Positions 12,987-28,378 are shown, numbered from the stretch's first letter. The stretch is 32,000 nt of DNA from Erysipelotrichaceae bacterium (GCA_963676105.1 OY781039.1:240001-272000); one strand, 5' to 3'. Translations and numbers: made by a program. The notes: generated from the letters alone by a model not told the origin.

Positions 12987-13016
12987 AGATGATCCAGAAA
13001 ATGGGTCATCTTTTTT
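12987..13016 (+). terminator. Terminator-like hairpin inside the IS left end, oriented against read-in from serA
   Basis: AGATGATCCA pairs with TGGGTCATCT as a 10-bp stem (one G-U pair) across a 5-nt loop, followed by T6 at 13011-13016. Confidence 0.4.
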
Positions 13017-13914
13017 AGTTTCTTATTTCTTGATTTTGTTTTATGGTTTCATAGTATTTTATGATTCGATTATTTGGTTTAATTGGGTATTGTGGAATGA
13101 CCTGACTATTTAAAGCTGCTTCTCTAACTTCAATAGGTGTTTGATTATTGAATCTGCTTTGAAATCTTTGATGATTGTAGAAGGACATATATTTATGAAT
13201 AGCTTGGTTTAAATCTTGTAGGTTTTCATATTTATGATGATGATACATCTCTGATTTAATAATGCCCCAGAAACCTTCAATCGGTCCATTATCGATACAG
13301 CGGCCAACTCTAGACATGCTTTGTGTCAATCCATTTGTTTCTAACTTATATTTGAATACTTTACTTGTATATTGGAATCCTCTATCTGAATGAAACAGTG
13401 GTTTCGCACCTGGATTAAGACTCATTGCTTTCTCAAAAGTGTTGAATACAAGTTGATTATTATTACGTCCACTTATCTCATACGCAACGATACTTCGATC
13501 ATATAAATCTAAGATGGCACTTAAATAGAGTTTCTGTTTTGTATGTCGATCTTTAAACTCAGTTACGTCTGTGACCCACTTTTGATTAGGTGCACTAGCG
13601 AAGAAATCTCTCGCTAAGATATTCTCAGCAGTAATCTCAGGTTCTGACTTATGATAGTTATTCTTCTTTTTACGTATGACGGATTTTATCCCTAATAGTC
13701 GCATCATACGACGAACACGTTTTTGATTATAATTTTTATGATTCAATCGATTAATGGCTATTGTCATACGTCGATAACCATAGATATGATCGAATATTTC
13801 ATCATACTCAAGTATCCATTGTGCAATTTGTTGGTTTTCCTTCTCTTGTGCTGTTTCAGTGCGTTTTAACCACTTATAGTAACTAGATCTCGGTATCTCT
13901 AATACCTGACACAT
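13015..13914 (-). CDS. IS3-family transposase OrfB (DDE integrase domain), probably made as an OrfAB fusion by -1 frameshifting
   Basis: The DDE triad contexts are WVTDVTEF, HSDRGFQY and NGPIEGFWG. The reading frame stays open upstream to the slippery site near 14019-14025. Confidence 0.85.
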   Translation of the reverse strand: MCQVLEIPRSSYYKWLKRTETAQEKENQQIAQWILEYDEIFDHIYGYRRMTIAINRLNHKNYNQKRVRRMMRLLGIKSVIRKKKNNYHKSEPEITAENILARDFFASAPNQKWVTDVTEFKDRHTKQKLYLSAILDLYDRSIVAYEISGRNNNQLVFNTFEKAMSLNPGAKPLFHSDRGFQYTSKVFKYKLETNGLTQSMSRVGRCIDNGPIEGFWGIIKSEMYHHHKYENLQDLNQAIHKYMSFYNHQRFQSRFNNQTPIEVREAALNSQVIPQYPIKPNNRIIKYYETIKQNQEIRN

Positions 13915-13958
13915 CCAATGTATACTCCAGTGATAATCTCTTTGACAGCTTTGTATGG

Positions 13959-14672
13959 CTAAGTATTTCGCTTCTTGTCTAACTTGACTGAATACCGCCT
14001 CCTTTCGAATTCCTTCACTTTTTTTAAGAGTGTGTTCTCATTCTCTTTAAGTTCTAATTGTTTCTCGAGTTGATCTATCTTCTTCTGCAGCTTTTCAACT
14101 TCACTTAAACTATCTTCTAGTTTTCGTTTACCACGTCGATCAAGTAAACCATCTTGTCCTTCAAGTTCATATTTCTTCACCCATTGATAAACTTGAGAAT
14201 ACGACACTTGATAAACTTCAGCTGCCTTTTTAAATTCACGATTGTGTTTGAGACAATACTCTACAATTTCAACCCGCTCTGCTAAATTTGTCTTCCTTCT
14301 TCCAGCCATATAAACATCTCCCTTAGGATCATAGTCCTTCAGTTCTATATGGTTATTATACTTTCTAAGCCAATTTAATATGATGGAATGGGATGATATT
14401 TGATACTTAATACGCAATCCTTCTAAGGAATCAACGCCGTTAAGATATTCGTGTATGACATTATCTTTTAGTTCTTTTGTATAGCGTTTGTTTCGTTCTT
14501 TATCTTCAAAAATTTCTCTGCCATATTTTTGATAACTATGTATCCATTGACGAACCGTGTAAGCTCGAACATTAAATTCAAATCCTAGTTGGTTCACTGA
14601 TTTTTCACCTCTTAAAAAAGTTTTTACTATTTCTACTTTAATTTCAGGACTATATTTATTCTTACGTCCCAT
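13959..14672 (-). CDS. IS3-family transposase OrfA (multiple HTH domains plus leucine-zipper-like coiled coil)
   Basis: There are repeated HTH segments (YSPEIKVEIV..., RRKTNLAERVEIVEYC...) and a C-terminal LQKKIDQLEKQLELKENE coiled coil. I prefer the ATG at 14672 (AGGAGG 8 nt upstream) over the track start at 14735. Confidence 0.8.
   Translation of the reverse strand: MGRKNKYSPEIKVEIVKTFLRGEKSVNQLGFEFNVRAYTVRQWIHSYQKYGREIFEDKERNKRYTKELKDNVIHEYLNGVDSLEGLRIKYQISSHSIILNWLRKYNNHIELKDYDPKGDVYMAGRRKTNLAERVEIVEYCLKHNREFKKAAEVYQVSYSQVYQWVKKYELEGQDGLLDRRGKRKLEDSLSEVEKLQKKIDQLEKQLELKENENTLLKKVKEFERRRYSVKLDKKRNT
14019..14025 (-). other. Programmed -1 ribosomal frameshift site (A AAA AAA G) joining orfA and orfB
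   Basis: The minus strand reads CTC TTA AAA AAA GTG in the orfA frame. A shift to -1 gives ...KKSEGIRKEAVFSQVRQEAKYLAIQSCQRDYHWSIHWMCQVLEIPRSSYYKW, which is continuous with OrfB. Confidence 0.6.
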
Positions 14673-14748
14673 ATAAAAAATCCCTCCTTTCAACTTTGCA
14701 TATTTGCATTGTCTACTTTGGAGGGATCTTATCACAAGTGGACTGTTT

Positions 14749-22844: not shown

Positions 22845-22867
22845 AAAAGACTTCGGTCTTTTTTTGT
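22845..22867 (+). terminator. Rho-independent terminator after the PASTA gene
   Basis: AAAGAC pairs with GTCTTT across a TTCG loop, followed by T8. Confidence 0.8.
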
Positions 22868-22987
22868 TTAGTCGTTTTAGAGTGCTACCATTAAATTATA
22901 TTTCAAGACAATTTCCTAGGTTAAGTGGAAAAAGTAAGAATTCATAAAAAATGTTAATCAAACTAAAATGAAGGAGGAAAGGAATCC

Positions 22988-24913
22988 ATGTTACAAAAAA
23001 GACAAATTGCATTACTTGATTTATTGCTCATCAATGAAAAACCTATAACAGGTGCGCAACTGGCAAAAACGTTAGGTGTTTCATCAAGGACTATTCGTAG
23101 TGATATTGAGCAGATTCAATCACATTTAAAAAGACACAACATTCTCATTCATTCAATTAATCCTAAGGGATATTATATTGATTTAATAGACAAAGATATT
23201 GTTGAAAAAATGCTGAATGAATTAAAAGATGAATCTAAGCAAACGACTTTGCCGCAGACACCTGACGAACGAATGACTTATATTTTGATGGATTTGTTAT
23301 TGCATGAAAAACAATCAATGCAAACACTTTCAGAACAACTATTCGTCACCAAAACTACTATAAATACTGATGTTAGCAAATTAAATGAAAGTATTTCTCA
23401 AGGCTTAAATGAAAATCTTATTAAATCTGATTCGAGTGGAATTCATTTTGATGGAGTTGAATTTGAAATTAGAAAAAGAAGTGCAAGTTGGATAGCTAAA
23501 GACCAAGATCATTTGAATCCATTAATTCAATGTTTAGATCTATTTGACCCTAGTAATAAATTCATTGAAAACACAATTGATATTTATCAAATGCTTGTTA
23601 ATATTATTGAACAATATCAGGTTTATCTAGCTGATCGAGAAGTATCATATTTAACAATGTTTCTCATCCTTTCCAAAAATCGTCATGAAAAATATCCGAT
23701 TGCGTACTCACTTAAACATGAACATATTGATTGGATTGAAGAAGTTATAAACCAATCATCTGACTTGCTAAGTGTTAATTGGACTGAAGATGATAAGAAT
23801 TCCATACGAATATTTTGTGATTCTCTGTCGTTAATATCTACTGAAATTGTTAAACAAGACAATAAAGATTTGCAACAATTAATAGACAAATTTTTAGAAA
23901 AAGTACTGAATTTTTATGATATTGATTTTAGAGAAAATGAAAGTTTAAAGCAGTTTCTATATGTTCATATTCGCTCAATGTTTTATCGTTTAGAACTGAA
24001 TGAACATGAATACAATCCATTAAAAGATGATATTAAGAAGAAGTTTCCATTAGCTACTGAAATTTCATTGTTGTTTTTTAACATAGTAAAAGAAGAAAAA
24101 CGACTCATGATGAACGATTCTGAAATATCATATATTGCTCTACACATTGCGAGTGCTTTGGAGGTTTTAATCGAACCTACAAGAATTATATTAGTTTCAA
24201 ATTTAAATCAAGGATCAACTCGTTTGCTTTCAACAAAATTAATTCATTTCTTTACAAATAAAATTAATATTGTACAAACACTATCTGTTTACCAGTATGA
24301 AAAGATAATTGACAACAATTCATTGAACTGCGATTTAATAGTTTCTACTTCAAGCATTAAAAATACTTCAAACATTCCGGTAGTTTTGGTTAATCCTTTA
24401 TTGTTTCGTGATGATATTGCACATCTAAAACGTTATATTCATTTCTATTCTATGGAAATGAAGAACCAATTAAGATTTTCTGAATTATTTGATGAAAGAC
24501 TATACTTTAGAGTATCAAATTCAAATAACTCCTATTATGCAACGATTAGATTCCTTGTTAGACAATTAAAAACCTTCGATTATATTGAAGATGAAGATGA
24601 GTATTATCAACTAATACTTGAGCGTGAAAAAACATTTTCAACCGTCATGGATAATGGCATTGCAATACCACATGCTGCAGAGAATAGATCTCGTAAAACA
24701 GTTATTGCTGTCGCAATATTAAATGAACCATTAATACATGAAGGTAAGAAAGTAAGTATAATCCTCCTAAATGCGATTAATGAGAAAGAAGATCTACAAA
24801 ATTTATATCAAATGATTGAGAAAGTTTTAGATCTTGAGAGTTTGAATGATGCATTAAGTGCCAAAAATTTAAGTCACTTTATTCAAATAATATCTCAGAA
24901 AGGTATGGATTAA
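22988..24913 (+). CDS. PRD-containing transcriptional regulator (LicR/MtlR-type: HTH - Mga-like HTH - PRD1 - PRD2 - EIIB-like - EIIA(Mtl/Fru)-like)
   Basis: The N-terminal DeoR-type HTH is ITGAQLAKTLGVSSRTIRSDI. PRD-type helices carry conserved His (YVHIRSMFYRL, ISYIALHIASAL). The C-terminal EIIA type-2 motif is GIAIPHAAEN. Confidence 0.8.
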   Translation: MLQKRQIALLDLLLINEKPITGAQLAKTLGVSSRTIRSDIEQIQSHLKRHNILIHSINPKGYYIDLIDKDIVEKMLNELKDESKQTTLPQTPDERMTYILMDLLLHEKQSMQTLSEQLFVTKTTINTDVSKLNESISQGLNENLIKSDSSGIHFDGVEFEIRKRSASWIAKDQDHLNPLIQCLDLFDPSNKFIENTIDIYQMLVNIIEQYQVYLADREVSYLTMFLILSKNRHEKYPIAYSLKHEHIDWIEEVINQSSDLLSVNWTEDDKNSIRIFCDSLSLISTEIVKQDNKDLQQLIDKFLEKVLNFYDIDFRENESLKQFLYVHIRSMFYRLELNEHEYNPLKDDIKKKFPLATEISLLFFNIVKEEKRLMMNDSEISYIALHIASALEVLIEPTRIILVSNLNQGSTRLLSTKLIHFFTNKINIVQTLSVYQYEKIIDNNSLNCDLIVSTSSIKNTSNIPVVLVNPLLFRDDIAHLKRYIHFYSMEMKNQLRFSELFDERLYFRVSNSNNSYYATIRFLVRQLKTFDYIEDEDEYYQLILEREKTFSTVMDNGIAIPHAAENRSRKTVIAVAILNEPLIHEGKKVSIILLNAINEKEDLQNLYQMIEKVLDLESLNDALSAKNLSHFIQIISQKGMD

Positions 24914-24915
24914 TT

Positions 24916-26526
24916 ATGAAACTATTACTCTTGTGTGCAGGTGGTTTATCGACAAGTTTGTTAGTTTCAAGAATGAAAAAATATGCCCAAAGTATTGGCG
25001 AAGATCCAGTGATCGAAGCTCATCCATATGGCAACCTAGATGAATTATTTGAACGATTCGACATGATTCTTCTTGGTCCACAAATAAGTCATAATCTTGA
25101 AAAGGTTAAAAATCGATGTGGCCACTCGATTAAATCTATTCGAGTTATTGATCCTGTTGATTACGGCTTACTCGATGGGAAAACTGTATATGAAAAAGCC
25201 AAACTTGACTTTACAAAGTCAGGGAAAGGAAAGAAGAAAACTATGAAAGATAAAATTTTACAAGTTATCTCTGATATTACGAATCATCCTTATGTATCAT
25301 CTTTACAAAAAGGGTTCATGTCAGTTATCGGGATAACAATTGCGGGTGGTATTTTTGCCCTCCTTAAAACACCTCCATTTCCAGCTGATACAACTAGTGG
25401 ATTTGGTTTAGCGTGGATAGCTTGGTCACAAGCAAATGCATCTTGGTTAGTAGTAGGTTATGAATTAACCATGAATTTCTTAGCTGTTTATGTATTGATT
25501 GGCGCTGTTTATGCACTAGCATCACATTATAAAATGAACGTATTAAATCCGATTGTTATGGGTTTATTGTCATTCTTAATTTTATCAGTGAATATTGCAT
25601 CATCTAATCCTGAAAATCCATATGCTGTCATGAATATGGCGATGAATTATTTGGGTGGACAAGGTATCTTTACAGCTATTGTAGTTTCAATTGTTGTAGT
25701 TGAATTATTAAGATTAATGAAAGAAAAACATGTTTTAGAATTAAAACTTCCTGATGCAGTTCCTCCTATGGTTTCTCAACCATTTGCATCATTATTTCAA
25801 AATCTAATTTTAATCTTAATTATTGTTTTAGTTAGAATTGCATTCTCATCTGTAGGAATGATGTTTCCACAAATCGTATTTGCCATATTTACACCTATTC
25901 TCAAAGCTGCAGATACGTTCTGGGCAATCGTATTGTTATTTGCTTTCTCGAGAGTTTTATGGTTCTTTGGGATTCATGGAACATCAGTTATCTTTGCAGT
26001 ATTAATGCCAATTGTTTTAGTTAATACTACAGAGAACTTAGCAGCTTATGCGGCAGGTGCTGAAATTCCACATATTTTCGCAGGTGGATTTATTTTATTC
26101 CAAATTGGTATGTTACCAGCTGCAATTGCAATGCTAATTATTGCGAGATCTGAGCGACTAAAAGCAGTTGCAAAATTAGGTTTTGTACCTTCATTATTTA
26201 TGATTTCCGAACCTATTTTATTTGGGACACCGTTTGTATTAAATCCAATCCTATTTATTCCACATATTGCGGCATTCGCATATTCAGTAGGGCTAGCTTA
26301 TATTGCAATGGCAGTTAATTTAGTTGGTAAGCCAATCTTCTCAACACCTAGTTTTGCTCCAGGATTTATCACAGCATTCTTGACAACAGGTGATTGGAAA
26401 GCTGTTCCTTTATGGTTAGCGATTGTTGCAGGTTCAACATTGATTTATATTCCATTTTTAAAGAAATATGATAATCAACTATTATTAGAAGAAAAAGAAC
26501 AAACATTAGATACTGAAGTAGAATAA
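24916..26526 (+). CDS. PTS transporter, fused EIIB-EIIC, lactose/cellobiose (Lac) family
   Basis: The N-terminal ~100 aa form an EIIB-cellobiose domain with the phospho-Cys (MKLLLLCAGGLSTSLLV). A K-rich linker leads to a ~430-aa polytopic EIIC domain of the cellobiose/chitobiose type. Confidence 0.85.
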   Translation: MKLLLLCAGGLSTSLLVSRMKKYAQSIGEDPVIEAHPYGNLDELFERFDMILLGPQISHNLEKVKNRCGHSIKSIRVIDPVDYGLLDGKTVYEKAKLDFTKSGKGKKKTMKDKILQVISDITNHPYVSSLQKGFMSVIGITIAGGIFALLKTPPFPADTTSGFGLAWIAWSQANASWLVVGYELTMNFLAVYVLIGAVYALASHYKMNVLNPIVMGLLSFLILSVNIASSNPENPYAVMNMAMNYLGGQGIFTAIVVSIVVVELLRLMKEKHVLELKLPDAVPPMVSQPFASLFQNLILILIIVLVRIAFSSVGMMFPQIVFAIFTPILKAADTFWAIVLLFAFSRVLWFFGIHGTSVIFAVLMPIVLVNTTENLAAYAAGAEIPHIFAGGFILFQIGMLPAAIAMLIIARSERLKAVAKLGFVPSLFMISEPILFGTPFVLNPILFIPHIAAFAYSVGLAYIAMAVNLVGKPIFSTPSFAPGFITAFLTTGDWKAVPLWLAIVAGSTLIYIPFLKKYDNQLLLEEKEQTLDTEVE

Positions 26527-26536
26527 AAGCTTATTC

Positions 26537-26571
26537 AGATAGAGGAGTTTTCTCCTCTATCTTGTTTGTTT
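26537..26571 (+). terminator. Strong hairpin (terminator/attenuator candidate) between EIIBC and the sulfatase gene
   Basis: AGATAGAGGAG pairs with CTCCTCTATCT as a perfect 11-bp stem across a TTTT loop, followed by TGTTTGTTT. Confidence 0.5.
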
Positions 26572-26594
26572 ATGTAAGGTAAGGTGATTAAAAA

Positions 26595-28352
26595 ATGAAA
26601 GCAGTACAAGTTATGTTTGATACGCTTAGTCGTAGATTTTTATCTATCTATGGTAATGAGTGGGTACAAACACCGAATTTTGAGAGATTAGCAGAAAAAG
26701 CAGTTGTATATAATAAATTTTTTGCTGGATCACTTCCGTGTATTCCAGCGCGTAGAGAATTGCATACGGGTAGATATAATTTTTTACATCGTTCATGGGG
26801 TCCACTAGAACCTTATGATTTTTCAGTCATTGAAACATTAAAGAATAATGGAATCTATACTCACTTAGTTACAGATCATTCTCATTATTTTGAGGATGGT
26901 GGGGCAACCTATCATAATCGATTTAATACATGGGAAGGTTTTAGAGGTCAAGAAGGGGATCGTTGGGTACCAACATTAAATCCAAAGTCAATATTCGTTC
27001 CAAAACAAAGTGAGACAAATAAGAAAGGTCCTTCACTCCTACATAATTATGCTAATCGAACACGTCAAAATACTGAAGAGGAAATGTCATCAGTGATGAC
27101 GATTAGAGCTGGTGTCGATTTTTTAGAAAAATATCATGATATTGATCAATGGTTTTTACAAATTGAATGTTTTGATCCACATGAACCATTTTTTGTACCG
27201 CAAAAATACTTGGATATGTATCAGGATACTTATACTGGAGACGTGTTTGATTGGCCGCCTTATTCACCAATAACTAGTGAATCAGATGAACAAAAAGAAC
27301 ATATAGTTAAACGTTATGCAGCATTAATTACAATGTGTGATACGTATTTAGGTGAAATTTTAGATCAATTTGATAGATACAATTTATGGCAAGACACTAT
27401 GCTTATCATTAATACAGATCATGGTTTTTTACTAGGTGAACATGATTGGTATGGTAAGAATGTTCAGCCAAATTACAATGAAATAGCTCATTTACCATTT
27501 TTAATTTATAAGCCAAATAGTGATCAACGTGAATCAAATACTTTAGTTAGAACGATAGATATTGCTCCAACTTTATTAGATTATTTTAATCAAGATATTC
27601 CTGATGTTGTACAAGGTAAATCAATTAGTAATGAGAGCGTTATTGATAATGCTTTATTTGGTGTTTTTGGAGCACAGGTTAATATTACAGATGGTCATCA
27701 TGTATATATGAGAGGACCAAATACAATTGATAATCAACCGTTGTTTGAATATACAATGATGCCTACACGTATGCGTGGTTTTATTGAAACTAAAGCATTA
27801 CAAAAAGCAGTCTTACAAGAACCATTTTCATTTACTAATGGGATGCCACAATTTAAAATACCCTCAAAGGCGTGGTTTAGTCCTTATCGATATGGTCATA
27901 AATTATTTGATATTGATCAAGACTATGAACAAAAACATCCAATAGATAATCTTGATCTTGAGATTGAATGGTTAAATAAATTGCGAGATGCCTTGATTGC
28001 GAGTGATGCACCAATTGAGCAATATGAAAGATTAGGTCTATCTATTAAAGAGGACATGACAAAGGATAAACTTTTAAAACAAAGATTATTTAGAGAAGCA
28101 TATCAAAAGATTGATATTGGACTAAAACTTAATTCTAAACAAGAAGCTAAAATTAGAATGATTCGCGAGATGTTACCAAAGCCTGTGTATGAACAATGGA
28201 TTACAAGTTTAGTTCAAGAAGCAAATGAGAATTCAAATATCGAAACGGTACTAGAGAAAAGTATTGTACAAGTCTTTGAAATGATGAAACTTCCCAGTCA
28301 TTATGCTTCTATGTTAATGAGTATGCTTGAATACGCTGATAAAGACAGTTAA
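26595..28352 (+). CDS. Cys-type (formylglycine-dependent) sulfatase family protein, with no signal peptide and a ~130-aa helical C-terminal extension
   Basis: The sulfatase signature SLPCIPARRELHTG (C-x-P-x-R, Cys49 codon at 26739-26741) is present, with the N-terminal metal ligand FDT and TDHG / NTDHG motifs. The N-terminus is not hydrophobic. Confidence 0.8.
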   Translation: MKAVQVMFDTLSRRFLSIYGNEWVQTPNFERLAEKAVVYNKFFAGSLPCIPARRELHTGRYNFLHRSWGPLEPYDFSVIETLKNNGIYTHLVTDHSHYFEDGGATYHNRFNTWEGFRGQEGDRWVPTLNPKSIFVPKQSETNKKGPSLLHNYANRTRQNTEEEMSSVMTIRAGVDFLEKYHDIDQWFLQIECFDPHEPFFVPQKYLDMYQDTYTGDVFDWPPYSPITSESDEQKEHIVKRYAALITMCDTYLGEILDQFDRYNLWQDTMLIINTDHGFLLGEHDWYGKNVQPNYNEIAHLPFLIYKPNSDQRESNTLVRTIDIAPTLLDYFNQDIPDVVQGKSISNESVIDNALFGVFGAQVNITDGHHVYMRGPNTIDNQPLFEYTMMPTRMRGFIETKALQKAVLQEPFSFTNGMPQFKIPSKAWFSPYRYGHKLFDIDQDYEQKHPIDNLDLEIEWLNKLRDALIASDAPIEQYERLGLSIKEDMTKDKLLKQRLFREAYQKIDIGLKLNSKQEAKIRMIREMLPKPVYEQWITSLVQEANENSNIETVLEKSIVQVFEMMKLPSHYASMLMSMLEYADKDS

Positions 28353-28378
28353 AAAACCGCGTGAGCGGTTTTCTTTTT
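28353..28378. terminator. Bidirectional rho-independent terminator between the convergent sulfatase and proA genes
   Basis: AAAACCGC pairs with GCGGTTTT across a GTGA loop, flanked by an A tract on the 5' side and a T tract on the 3' side. Confidence 0.85.

Follow-up and report, generated by a model that had tools for sequence, protein, structure and literature searches.

A reduced three-gene PTS-sulfatase module in an Erysipelotrichaceae genome, a candidate route for the import and cytoplasmic desulfation of a sulfated sugar

Sulfated glycans (mucins, glycosaminoglycans, and algal and plant sulfates) are major nutrients, and the known bacterial desulfation route, best studied in Bacteroides, acts outside the cytoplasm. 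Cytoplasmic sulfatases linked to a phosphotransferase system (PTS) are widespread in Gram-positive bacteria, and to our knowledge none of them has been assigned a substrate or an order of reactions. Here we analyze one such locus, a three-gene unit at positions 22988 to 28352 of a 32,000-nucleotide (nt) stretch of DNA (the window), which corresponds to positions 240001-272000 of the complete 1.96-Mb genome (33.9% G+C) of an Erysipelotrichaceae bacterium (GCA_963676105.1, OY781039.1). The unit codes for a PRD regulator, a Lac-family PTS permease in which EIIB is fused to EIIC, and a leaderless sulfatase with a cysteine-type formylglycine motif.

The closest described system is the Streptococcus pneumoniae island SPH1922-SPH1930, which contains a ROK regulator, a Lac-family "cellobiose" PTS, a sulfatase, a radical-SAM sulfatase-modifying enzyme, and TauE (McAllister et al. 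2012, PMC3283741; Bidossi et al. 2012, PMC3302838). The description of this island is at the annotation level; it adds to the fitness of the pneumococcus in mice, its substrate was not found, and its regulator controls both the PTS and the sulfatase transcripts (PMC3283741, PMC3302838). These two papers were the only ones on the subject in our literature search, outside the coverage of which lie subscription journals, and we found no biochemically characterised PTS-coupled sulfatase there. Likened by gene content, the window resembles the pneumococcal island in having a Lac-family PTS beside a cytoplasmic Cys-type sulfatase that needs a maturase, and in lacking a glycosidase. The differences are the presence of a PRD activator instead of a ROK repressor, the fusion of EIIB to EIIC, the absence of EIIA, maturase, and TauE from the locus (TauE is absent from the genome altogether), and the lack of a ComA-like gene. 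A second locus of the same genome, with EIIC, a CxPSR sulfatase, RpiR, and an anaerobic sulfatase maturase (anSME), looks closer to the pneumococcal arrangement than the window does. Another point of comparison is Bifidobacterium breve UCC2003, for which a summary describes an intracellular sulfatase route for N-acetylglucosamine-6-sulfate (Egan et al. 2016, summarised in PMC7326374). Set beside that summary, the likeness is one of logic, as import would come first and desulfation would follow inside a Gram-positive gut bacterium using a sulfated monosaccharide; in the PTS route of the window, the sugar would be phosphorylated on entry and would reach the sulfatase with a phosphate as well as its sulfate.

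The locus is a real, intact, and conserved module. PTS-sulfatase modules were already described at the annotation level in 2012, so it is not unique; it is a reduced three-gene form of this known, biochemically uncharacterised type. We read it as a catabolic module under its own regulator, the substrate of which would be a sulfated sugar or a sulfated beta-glycoside, with PTS import followed by cytoplasmic desulfation, and give this reading a probability of roughly 65%. As a minimal version in a small complete genome, where the trans-acting partners can be identified, it is a convenient test case both for the substrate of such modules and for the action of a sulfatase on a phosphorylated sugar.

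(The three genes.) The unit is filled by three co-directional open reading frames (ORFs) on the + strand, coding for the PRD activator (22988-24913, 641 amino acids [aa], recognized by its Pfam domains), the fused EIIB-EIIC permease (24916-26526, 536 aa, Pfam and TIGR00410), and the long-form S1 sulfatase (26595-28352, 585 aa, PF00884). Only 2 nt separate the regulator stop from the EIIBC start codon. The left boundary is an intrinsic terminator on the + strand (22846-22866), which ends the preceding PASTA/ABC operon directly 3' of the PASTA gene stop. Its hairpin, AAAAGAC-UUCG-GUCUUUUUUU, has a 7-bp stem, a UUCG loop, and a T-run; it has fewer than the three GC pairs that our terminator scan requires and is hence not in the scan listing. 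The right boundary is a two-way intrinsic terminator common with the convergent proA (28353-28372, AAAACCGCGTGAGCGGTTTT), which has T-runs on each strand and was found by the scan on both; the 41-nt stretch around it folds with -12.8 kcal/mol (z = -2.9). A first-pass annotation of the window had described a terminator-bounded three-gene unit with a Lac-family PTS protein carrying EIIB at the N terminus of EIIC and a C-x-P-x-R sulfatase devoid of signal peptide and transmembrane segment. All three elements of that description are borne out by the domain, motif, and boundary data, with a conserved internal hairpin as the refinement.

The sulfatase matches PF00884 over residues 4-331 (108.8 bits, cut-off 25; 4.4e-31). 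It starts straight in the catalytic core, at the first core strand (MKAVQVMFD...), with neither a signal peptide nor a membrane anchor, and all 21 aligned relatives begin in the same leaderless way. Mean column identity in this alignment is 60%. Within the motif C49-I-P-A-R53, residues C49, P51, A52, and R53 (CxPAR) are invariant in the 21 relatives, and the motif coincides with the formylglycine stretch of SpAS1 in a printed alignment read by eye. Equally invariant are D9, H95, H97, H196, D275, H276, and K288, to which putative metal-binding and catalytic roles can be assigned by homology. The AlphaFold model (pLDDT 81, pTM 0.86) was compared with the PDB by Foldseek, and the top 50 matches listed were all S1 sulfatases, with a probability of 1.00 and 14-20% identity. 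The enzyme thus shares with solved S1 sulfatases and phosphonate monoester hydrolases (SpAS1 4upi, SpAS2 4upl, PsS1_NC 6pt4, and BuS1_11 7lha) the S1 alkaline-phosphatase-superfamily fold, the formylglycine motif, and the metal and catalytic residues; unlike them, at 14-20% identity, it is cytoplasmic instead of exported and has an extra helical tail. In a sequence comparison, the best-matching solved structures were those of the SpAS1/SpAS2/phosphonate-monoester-hydrolase group (E = 1.5e-23 to 1.8e-18). The closest solved structure was rejected as a guide to the substrate, as all S1 subfamilies are equally distant.

Members of this family come in a short form of ~490 aa and a long form of ~590 aa, the latter adding residues ~483-585, about 100 aa. 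The first-pass annotation had noted a helical C-terminal extension of ~130 aa. The helices are indeed there, running from 453 to 579 in the AlphaFold model, and the extension is shorter than stated, since residues ~453-482 are common to the whole family. The extra tail is modelled as a helical bundle (helices 490-579), and it has no Pfam match above threshold. A word-index search recovered ~8,000 relatives, and a pattern scan of species-representative genomes confirmed at least 593 loci at 43-57% identity in Bacillota, Actinomycetota, Chloroflexota, Planctomycetota, and others. Judged from its sequence, the window enzyme is a formylglycine-type member of a large, highly conserved, cytoplasmic, and biochemically uncharacterised S1 subfamily.

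The permease contains PF02302 (PTS_IIB, residues 2-94, with Cys7 in LLCAGGLSTS) and PF02378 (PTS_EIIC, residues 132-452). It passes the cut-off of TIGR00410, the Lac-family IIC subfamily (249.2 bits, cut-off 236), and lies below every NCBIfam equivalog cut-off for cellobiose, lactose, and chitobiose transporters. Compared with the six other Lac-type EIICs that the genome encodes, its EIIC reaches an identity of only 27-30% (about 20% with that of the operon at 200,834-206,294), and the value is 34-40% for EIICs adjoining members of this sulfatase family in other genomes, among them Bulleidia, Solobacterium, and Hungatella. In a maximum-likelihood tree of EIICs, the window, a sister genome of the same genus, and locus L103 form a clade (100/100) that joins the wider group of sulfatase-linked EIICs (93/94), and the six paralogues fall outside this group. 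That the window EIIC groups with sulfatase-linked EIICs and not with its own paralogues supports a functional link between permease and sulfatase.

The same conclusion comes from gene order. In the sister genome, the triad recurs, B-C fusion included, with a sulfatase that is 69% identical, placed between different flanks (HD/metallophosphatase genes on one side and an aromatic amino-acid operon on the other). L103 (60% sulfatase identity), L113 (59%), and L115 (51%) have the order regulator-EIIB-EIIC-EIIA-sulfatase, with B, C, and A as separate genes, while in L114 (55%) the order EIIB-EIIC-EIIA-sulfatase continues with RpiR, EIIC, a second sulfatase, two genes of the chromate-transporter family (both PF02417), and anSME. 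The EIIA-containing order is thus present in four of the five nearest relatives, one contig ending before the regulator position. The regulator, Lac-type PTS, and sulfatase set recurs in all five and the EIIC tree agrees, which upholds the claim of the first-pass annotation that the three genes form a functional set. No glycosidase gene was found in the modules of the window, the sister genome, L103, L113, L114, or L115. As separate B and C genes with EIIA are found in four of the five relatives, the window form is the derived one, and we describe it, from this comparison of predicted genes, as a reduced derivative of an ancestral regulator-EIIB-EIIC-EIIA-sulfatase operon, in which EIIB was fused to EIIC and EIIA was lost.

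Pfam matches of the regulator are HTH_11 (8.9e-17), Mga (3.2e-08), PRD (6.3e-16), and PTS_EIIA_2 (3.1e-23), so that it is predicted to be a PRD-containing activator with the architecture of the MtlR/LicR/ManR class; Pfam detected a single PRD and the second is deduced. H327 in the PRD and H562 in the EIIA Mtl/Fru-like domain are invariant in an alignment of six orthologues. The EIIB(Gat)-like segment (residues ~400-430, window positions 24100-24400) is without its Cys and reads LVSNLNQGST. At this site, the regulators of L048, L049, and L033 keep C-A/G-S-G-x-G (VCASGVGTS), and S-N or S-D stands there in the window, the sister genome, and L103. The clade formed by these last three has thus lost one of the sites through which the PTS controls MtlR-type activators. 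A classical counterpart within the genome is a cellobiose/lichenan operon with a LicR-type activator (200,834-206,294: regulator, EIIB, EIIC, EIIA, and GH1), which has the same regulator architecture, PTS family, and adjacency of regulator and PTS. The difference is that in the window unit a sulfatase takes the place of the GH1 phospho-beta-glucosidase and the EIIB-like Cys of the regulator is lost.

The first-pass annotation had listed a Lac-type EIIA, GH1 or GH4 glycosidases, anSME, and FGE as missing partners. This stands for the window, where none was seen in the ORF translations and where no genome-wide match falls (all lie outside 240001-272000). It does not stand for the genome, where there are genes for two Lac-type EIIAs, for about nine GH1 and three GH4 enzymes, and for one anSME-like protein; FGE was not found in the genome-wide search. 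The EIIA at 204,487 is inside the classical regulator-EIIB-EIIC-EIIA-GH1 operon. The one at 1,444,563 is an orphan beside a SIS-domain (MurQ-like) gene, GH1, and a gene of the chromate-transporter family; its identity to the EIIA from a Collinsella module centred on the second sulfatase type is 49%. With seven Lac-type EIICs and two EIIAs, sharing of EIIA must be the rule in this organism. As a separate observation, the region 1439950-1444874 brings together a chromate-transporter-family protein (PF02417), GH1, an Fe-ADH-like gene, the SIS-domain gene, and the orphan EIIA.

The second PTS-sulfatase locus is ~0.8 Mb away (1,058,725-1,066,686) and codes for EIIC-Lac, flavodoxin-like and cysK-like proteins, a leaderless CVPSR-type sulfatase of 491 aa, another EIIC-Lac, RpiR, and the anSME-like protein (1,065,595-1,066,686, 363 aa, Radical_SAM and SPASM domains). 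As there is no FGE in the genome, this anSME-like enzyme is the only candidate maturase. In the EIIC tree, the EIIC of this locus groups (100/100) with those that, in loci of Clostridiaceae and Collinsella, adjoin orthologues of the second sulfatase. Such orthologues (34-59% identity) are within 8 kb of a window-type sulfatase in 8 of 80 loci (L023, L026, L047, L055, L070, L083, L091, and L100), as well as in L114, and the paired sulfatases often have a PTS permease each. This tendency of the two types to occur side by side hints at a pair of related substrates or at two positions of the sulfate; this genome keeps them in separate loci.

From the observations, namely gene content, domains, motif conservation, gene order, the co-evolving EIIC, and the partner genes, we infer a mechanism in which every step is a proposal. 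The PRD activator would switch the operon on while the PTS is busy with its substrate, sensing this by phosphorylation sites in its PRD and EIIA-like domains. The EIIB-EIIC protein would import and phosphorylate the substrate with phosphate from EI/HPr, delivered by a Lac-type EIIA encoded elsewhere. Cys49 of the sulfatase would be converted to formylglycine by the anSME-like enzyme, and the matured sulfatase would hydrolyse the sulfate ester in the cytoplasm. The resulting sugar phosphate could then enter central metabolism and glycolysis, either directly or after cleavage by a GH1 or GH4 phospho-glycosidase. Import of a sulfated sugar with cytoplasmic desulfation was also the first proposal made for this DNA, in which the sugar may come from a host glycan, and it is still the best one.

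Several points weigh against it. The pneumococcal island is the only PTS-linked sulfatase island that has been tested, and lysates had no activity on 4-methylumbelliferyl sulfate (PMC3283741). Compared with the module EIIA of the relatives, both EIIAs of the genome fall short of clear orthology (31-36% identity), the anSME-like gene scores 337.4 bits, just below the TIGR03942 equivalog cut-off of 349.45, and the hairpin 5' of the sulfatase gene could uncouple sulfatase expression from that of the PTS gene. Our literature search, with the coverage given above, found no substrate, induction, or enzyme data for any member of the subfamily. Last, a genome-wide search found no TauE exporter, so TauE was rejected as the sulfate exit here and sulfate disposal is unexplained; a ChrA-type (PF02417) protein might be a candidate exit in lineages without TauE.

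A more specific version, which we put forward tentatively and regard as rather less probable than its opposite, is that the PTS-coupled sulfatase acts on a sugar bearing both a 6-phosphate and a sulfate ester, with a sulfated monosaccharide as the cargo, one step away from an ordinary hexose 6-phosphate. We know of no sulfatase for which a phospho-sulfo-sugar has been described as a substrate class. If this version holds, Lac-type modules would be free of glycosidases because the cargo is a sulfated monosaccharide. Such glycosidase-free modules, together with the context of Man-family PTS and LacA/LacB in one relative, keep a sulfated monosaccharide among the possible cargoes. The relative in question (P0054, in a cluster named for Sebaldella termitidis, on a metagenomic contig) has a locus with a Man-family PTS, LacA/LacB, RpiR, a second sulfatase, anSME, and TauE.

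The alternative that survives best, although we consider it improbable, is that the enzyme is a formylglycine-dependent phosphoesterase (PMH/PehA-like), acting on the phosphate added by the PTS, on a phosphonate, or on a phosphodiester instead of a sulfate ester. The matches to the SpAS1/SpAS2/phosphonate-monoester-hydrolase group, the best among solved structures by sequence, fit this idea, as do the absence of TauE from the genome and a partial match to NCBIfam PehA, which at 102.6 bits is far under the cut-off of 900; by fold, however, no S1 subfamily is any closer than the others. The genomic neighbours of the family are more informative. We clustered the neighbours of 80 loci and counted them, within 4 kb, for the 71 that had the target gene among their predicted genes; anSME, FGE, TauE, the Bgl- and Lac-type PTS parts, RpiR, and MFS clusters were named from Pfam or NCBIfam matches, and the ABC parts, GH3, LacI, and BglG clusters from sequence reading alone. 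A PTS permease of Lac or Bgl type was found in 14/71 loci, ABC importer parts in 19, a GPH/MFS symporter in 5, and GH3 in 9, and with the Man type the importers of the family span five transporter classes (Lac-, Bgl-, and Man-type PTS, ABC, and MFS). A formylglycine maturase adjoins family members in 18/71 loci (anSME in 12 and FGE in 6), and TauE does so in 4. Homologues at 45-55% identity are thus tied to ABC and MFS importers, which leave their cargo unphosphorylated, so a phosphoester made by a PTS cannot be what the enzyme generally requires or attacks. The non-PTS importers, together with the maturase and TauE neighbours and the frequent pairing with a second, canonical CxPSR sulfatase, favour hydrolysis of a sulfate ester over that of a phosphoester, and the attack on the phosphoester that the first-pass annotation had offered as its alternative is disfavoured. 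In the neighbourhood data, we also observed a Listeria aquatica locus (L072, 9430-12285) in which anSME, in two ORFs (possibly by a frameshift), TauE, and FGE adjoin the sulfatase. With FGE and anSME beside one sulfatase, oxygen-dependent and anaerobic maturation systems are found together there.

Sulfur scavenging, in which the enzyme would release sulfate for assimilation and not serve carbon catabolism, the PTS link being incidental, is also quite unlikely. Bacterial arylsulfatases are classically sulfate-starvation enzymes, and a cysK-like gene adjoins the second sulfatase in the 1.06-Mb locus, both of which would suit such a role. Regulation through a PRD activator together with a sugar PTS instead typifies carbon catabolism, and the relatives are under the sugar regulators RpiR, BglG, and LacI.

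Even less probable is that the sulfatase is merely adjacent, with a hairpin at 26537-26562 (+ strand, terminator-like in the scan) ending the regulator-EIIBC transcript and the sulfatase having an unrelated role. This hairpin, between the EIIBC and sulfatase genes, is strong, with an 11-bp stem followed by a T-rich stretch, and the 81 nt around it fold with -21.8 kcal/mol (z = -4.1). The T tract is interrupted, though, and the gap 5' of the sulfatase Shine-Dalgarno sequence (AAGGTGA) is too small for a promoter. The adjacency of PTS and sulfatase is kept in all five nearest relatives and several other lineages, with gaps down to 11 nt or overlapping genes, and the grouping of EIICs in the tree follows the link to the sulfatase. 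At the equivalent position, the sister genome (L102) has a hairpin whose core, GATAGAG/CTCTATC, is identical. With a conserved hairpin inside, the three-gene unit is not a plain operon, and the hairpin is probably a leaky terminator or a stabiliser of the transcript 3' end, which would set the ratio of transporter to enzyme. In the sister genome, we observed a second hairpin of 16 bp just 5' of the sulfatase start, which is not in the window; the 126-nt stretch with both hairpins (L102, 8880-9005) has a z of -5.5.

Last, a glucosinolate cargo, a special case of import and desulfation in which removal of the sulfate from this plant thioglucoside in the cytoplasm, before a phospho-beta-glucosidase acts, would avoid isothiocyanate, is very doubtful: an excerpt of PMC8660893 implicates beta-glucoside-type PTS and phospho-beta-glucosidases in bacterial glucosinolate metabolism, and some family members occur with BglG, Bgl-type EII, and GH1, but nothing in the locus is specific to glucosinolates, the Lac-type modules lack GH1, and the family is found in metagenome genomes of Planctomycetota, Kiritimatiellia, and Caldilineaceae, where we would simply not expect these compounds.

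Regarding its origin, the regulator gene had been described by eye as A/T-rich and as a possible sign of horizontal acquisition. The first part is correct, as its GC of 0.287 (genome 0.339) places it at the 5th percentile among genes. The second part fails when composition is compared with the genome: G+C at third codon positions (GC3) is 0.206, 0.211, and 0.181 for the regulator, EIIBC, and sulfatase genes (genome mean 0.233, standard deviation 0.035), and their synonymous codon-usage distances from the genome mean are at percentiles 8, 46, and 42. With GC3 and codon usage ordinary for the genome in all three genes, we rejected a compositional island, and the low GC of the regulator sits at codon positions 1 and 2 and reflects its amino-acid content. 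Its distribution is patchy: of 80 other genera that we sampled from its taxonomic family, 9 have a member of the sulfatase family at E <= 1e-50, and the long form was found in that sampling only in the same-genus genome. The locus is an accessory module, and its history is one of old transfer or repeated loss, between which composition does not discriminate.

Two features of the window are of minor interest. Upstream of the regulator there is a weak candidate sigma-70-like promoter (22941-22969, + strand, TTCATA-17-TAAAAT, 9/12 consensus matches), which is a candidate only, given that such sites are not more numerous in the region than in shuffled expectation; inspection by eye of the same 5' region gave no convincing cre site or activator operator. 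Away from the module, on the - strand at 13015-14735, two ORFs in overlapping frames (258 and 299 aa) are IS3-type-like as judged from their translations, with an HTH orfA and a DDE integrase-like orfB, and are located between serA and the MacB-like ABC genes.

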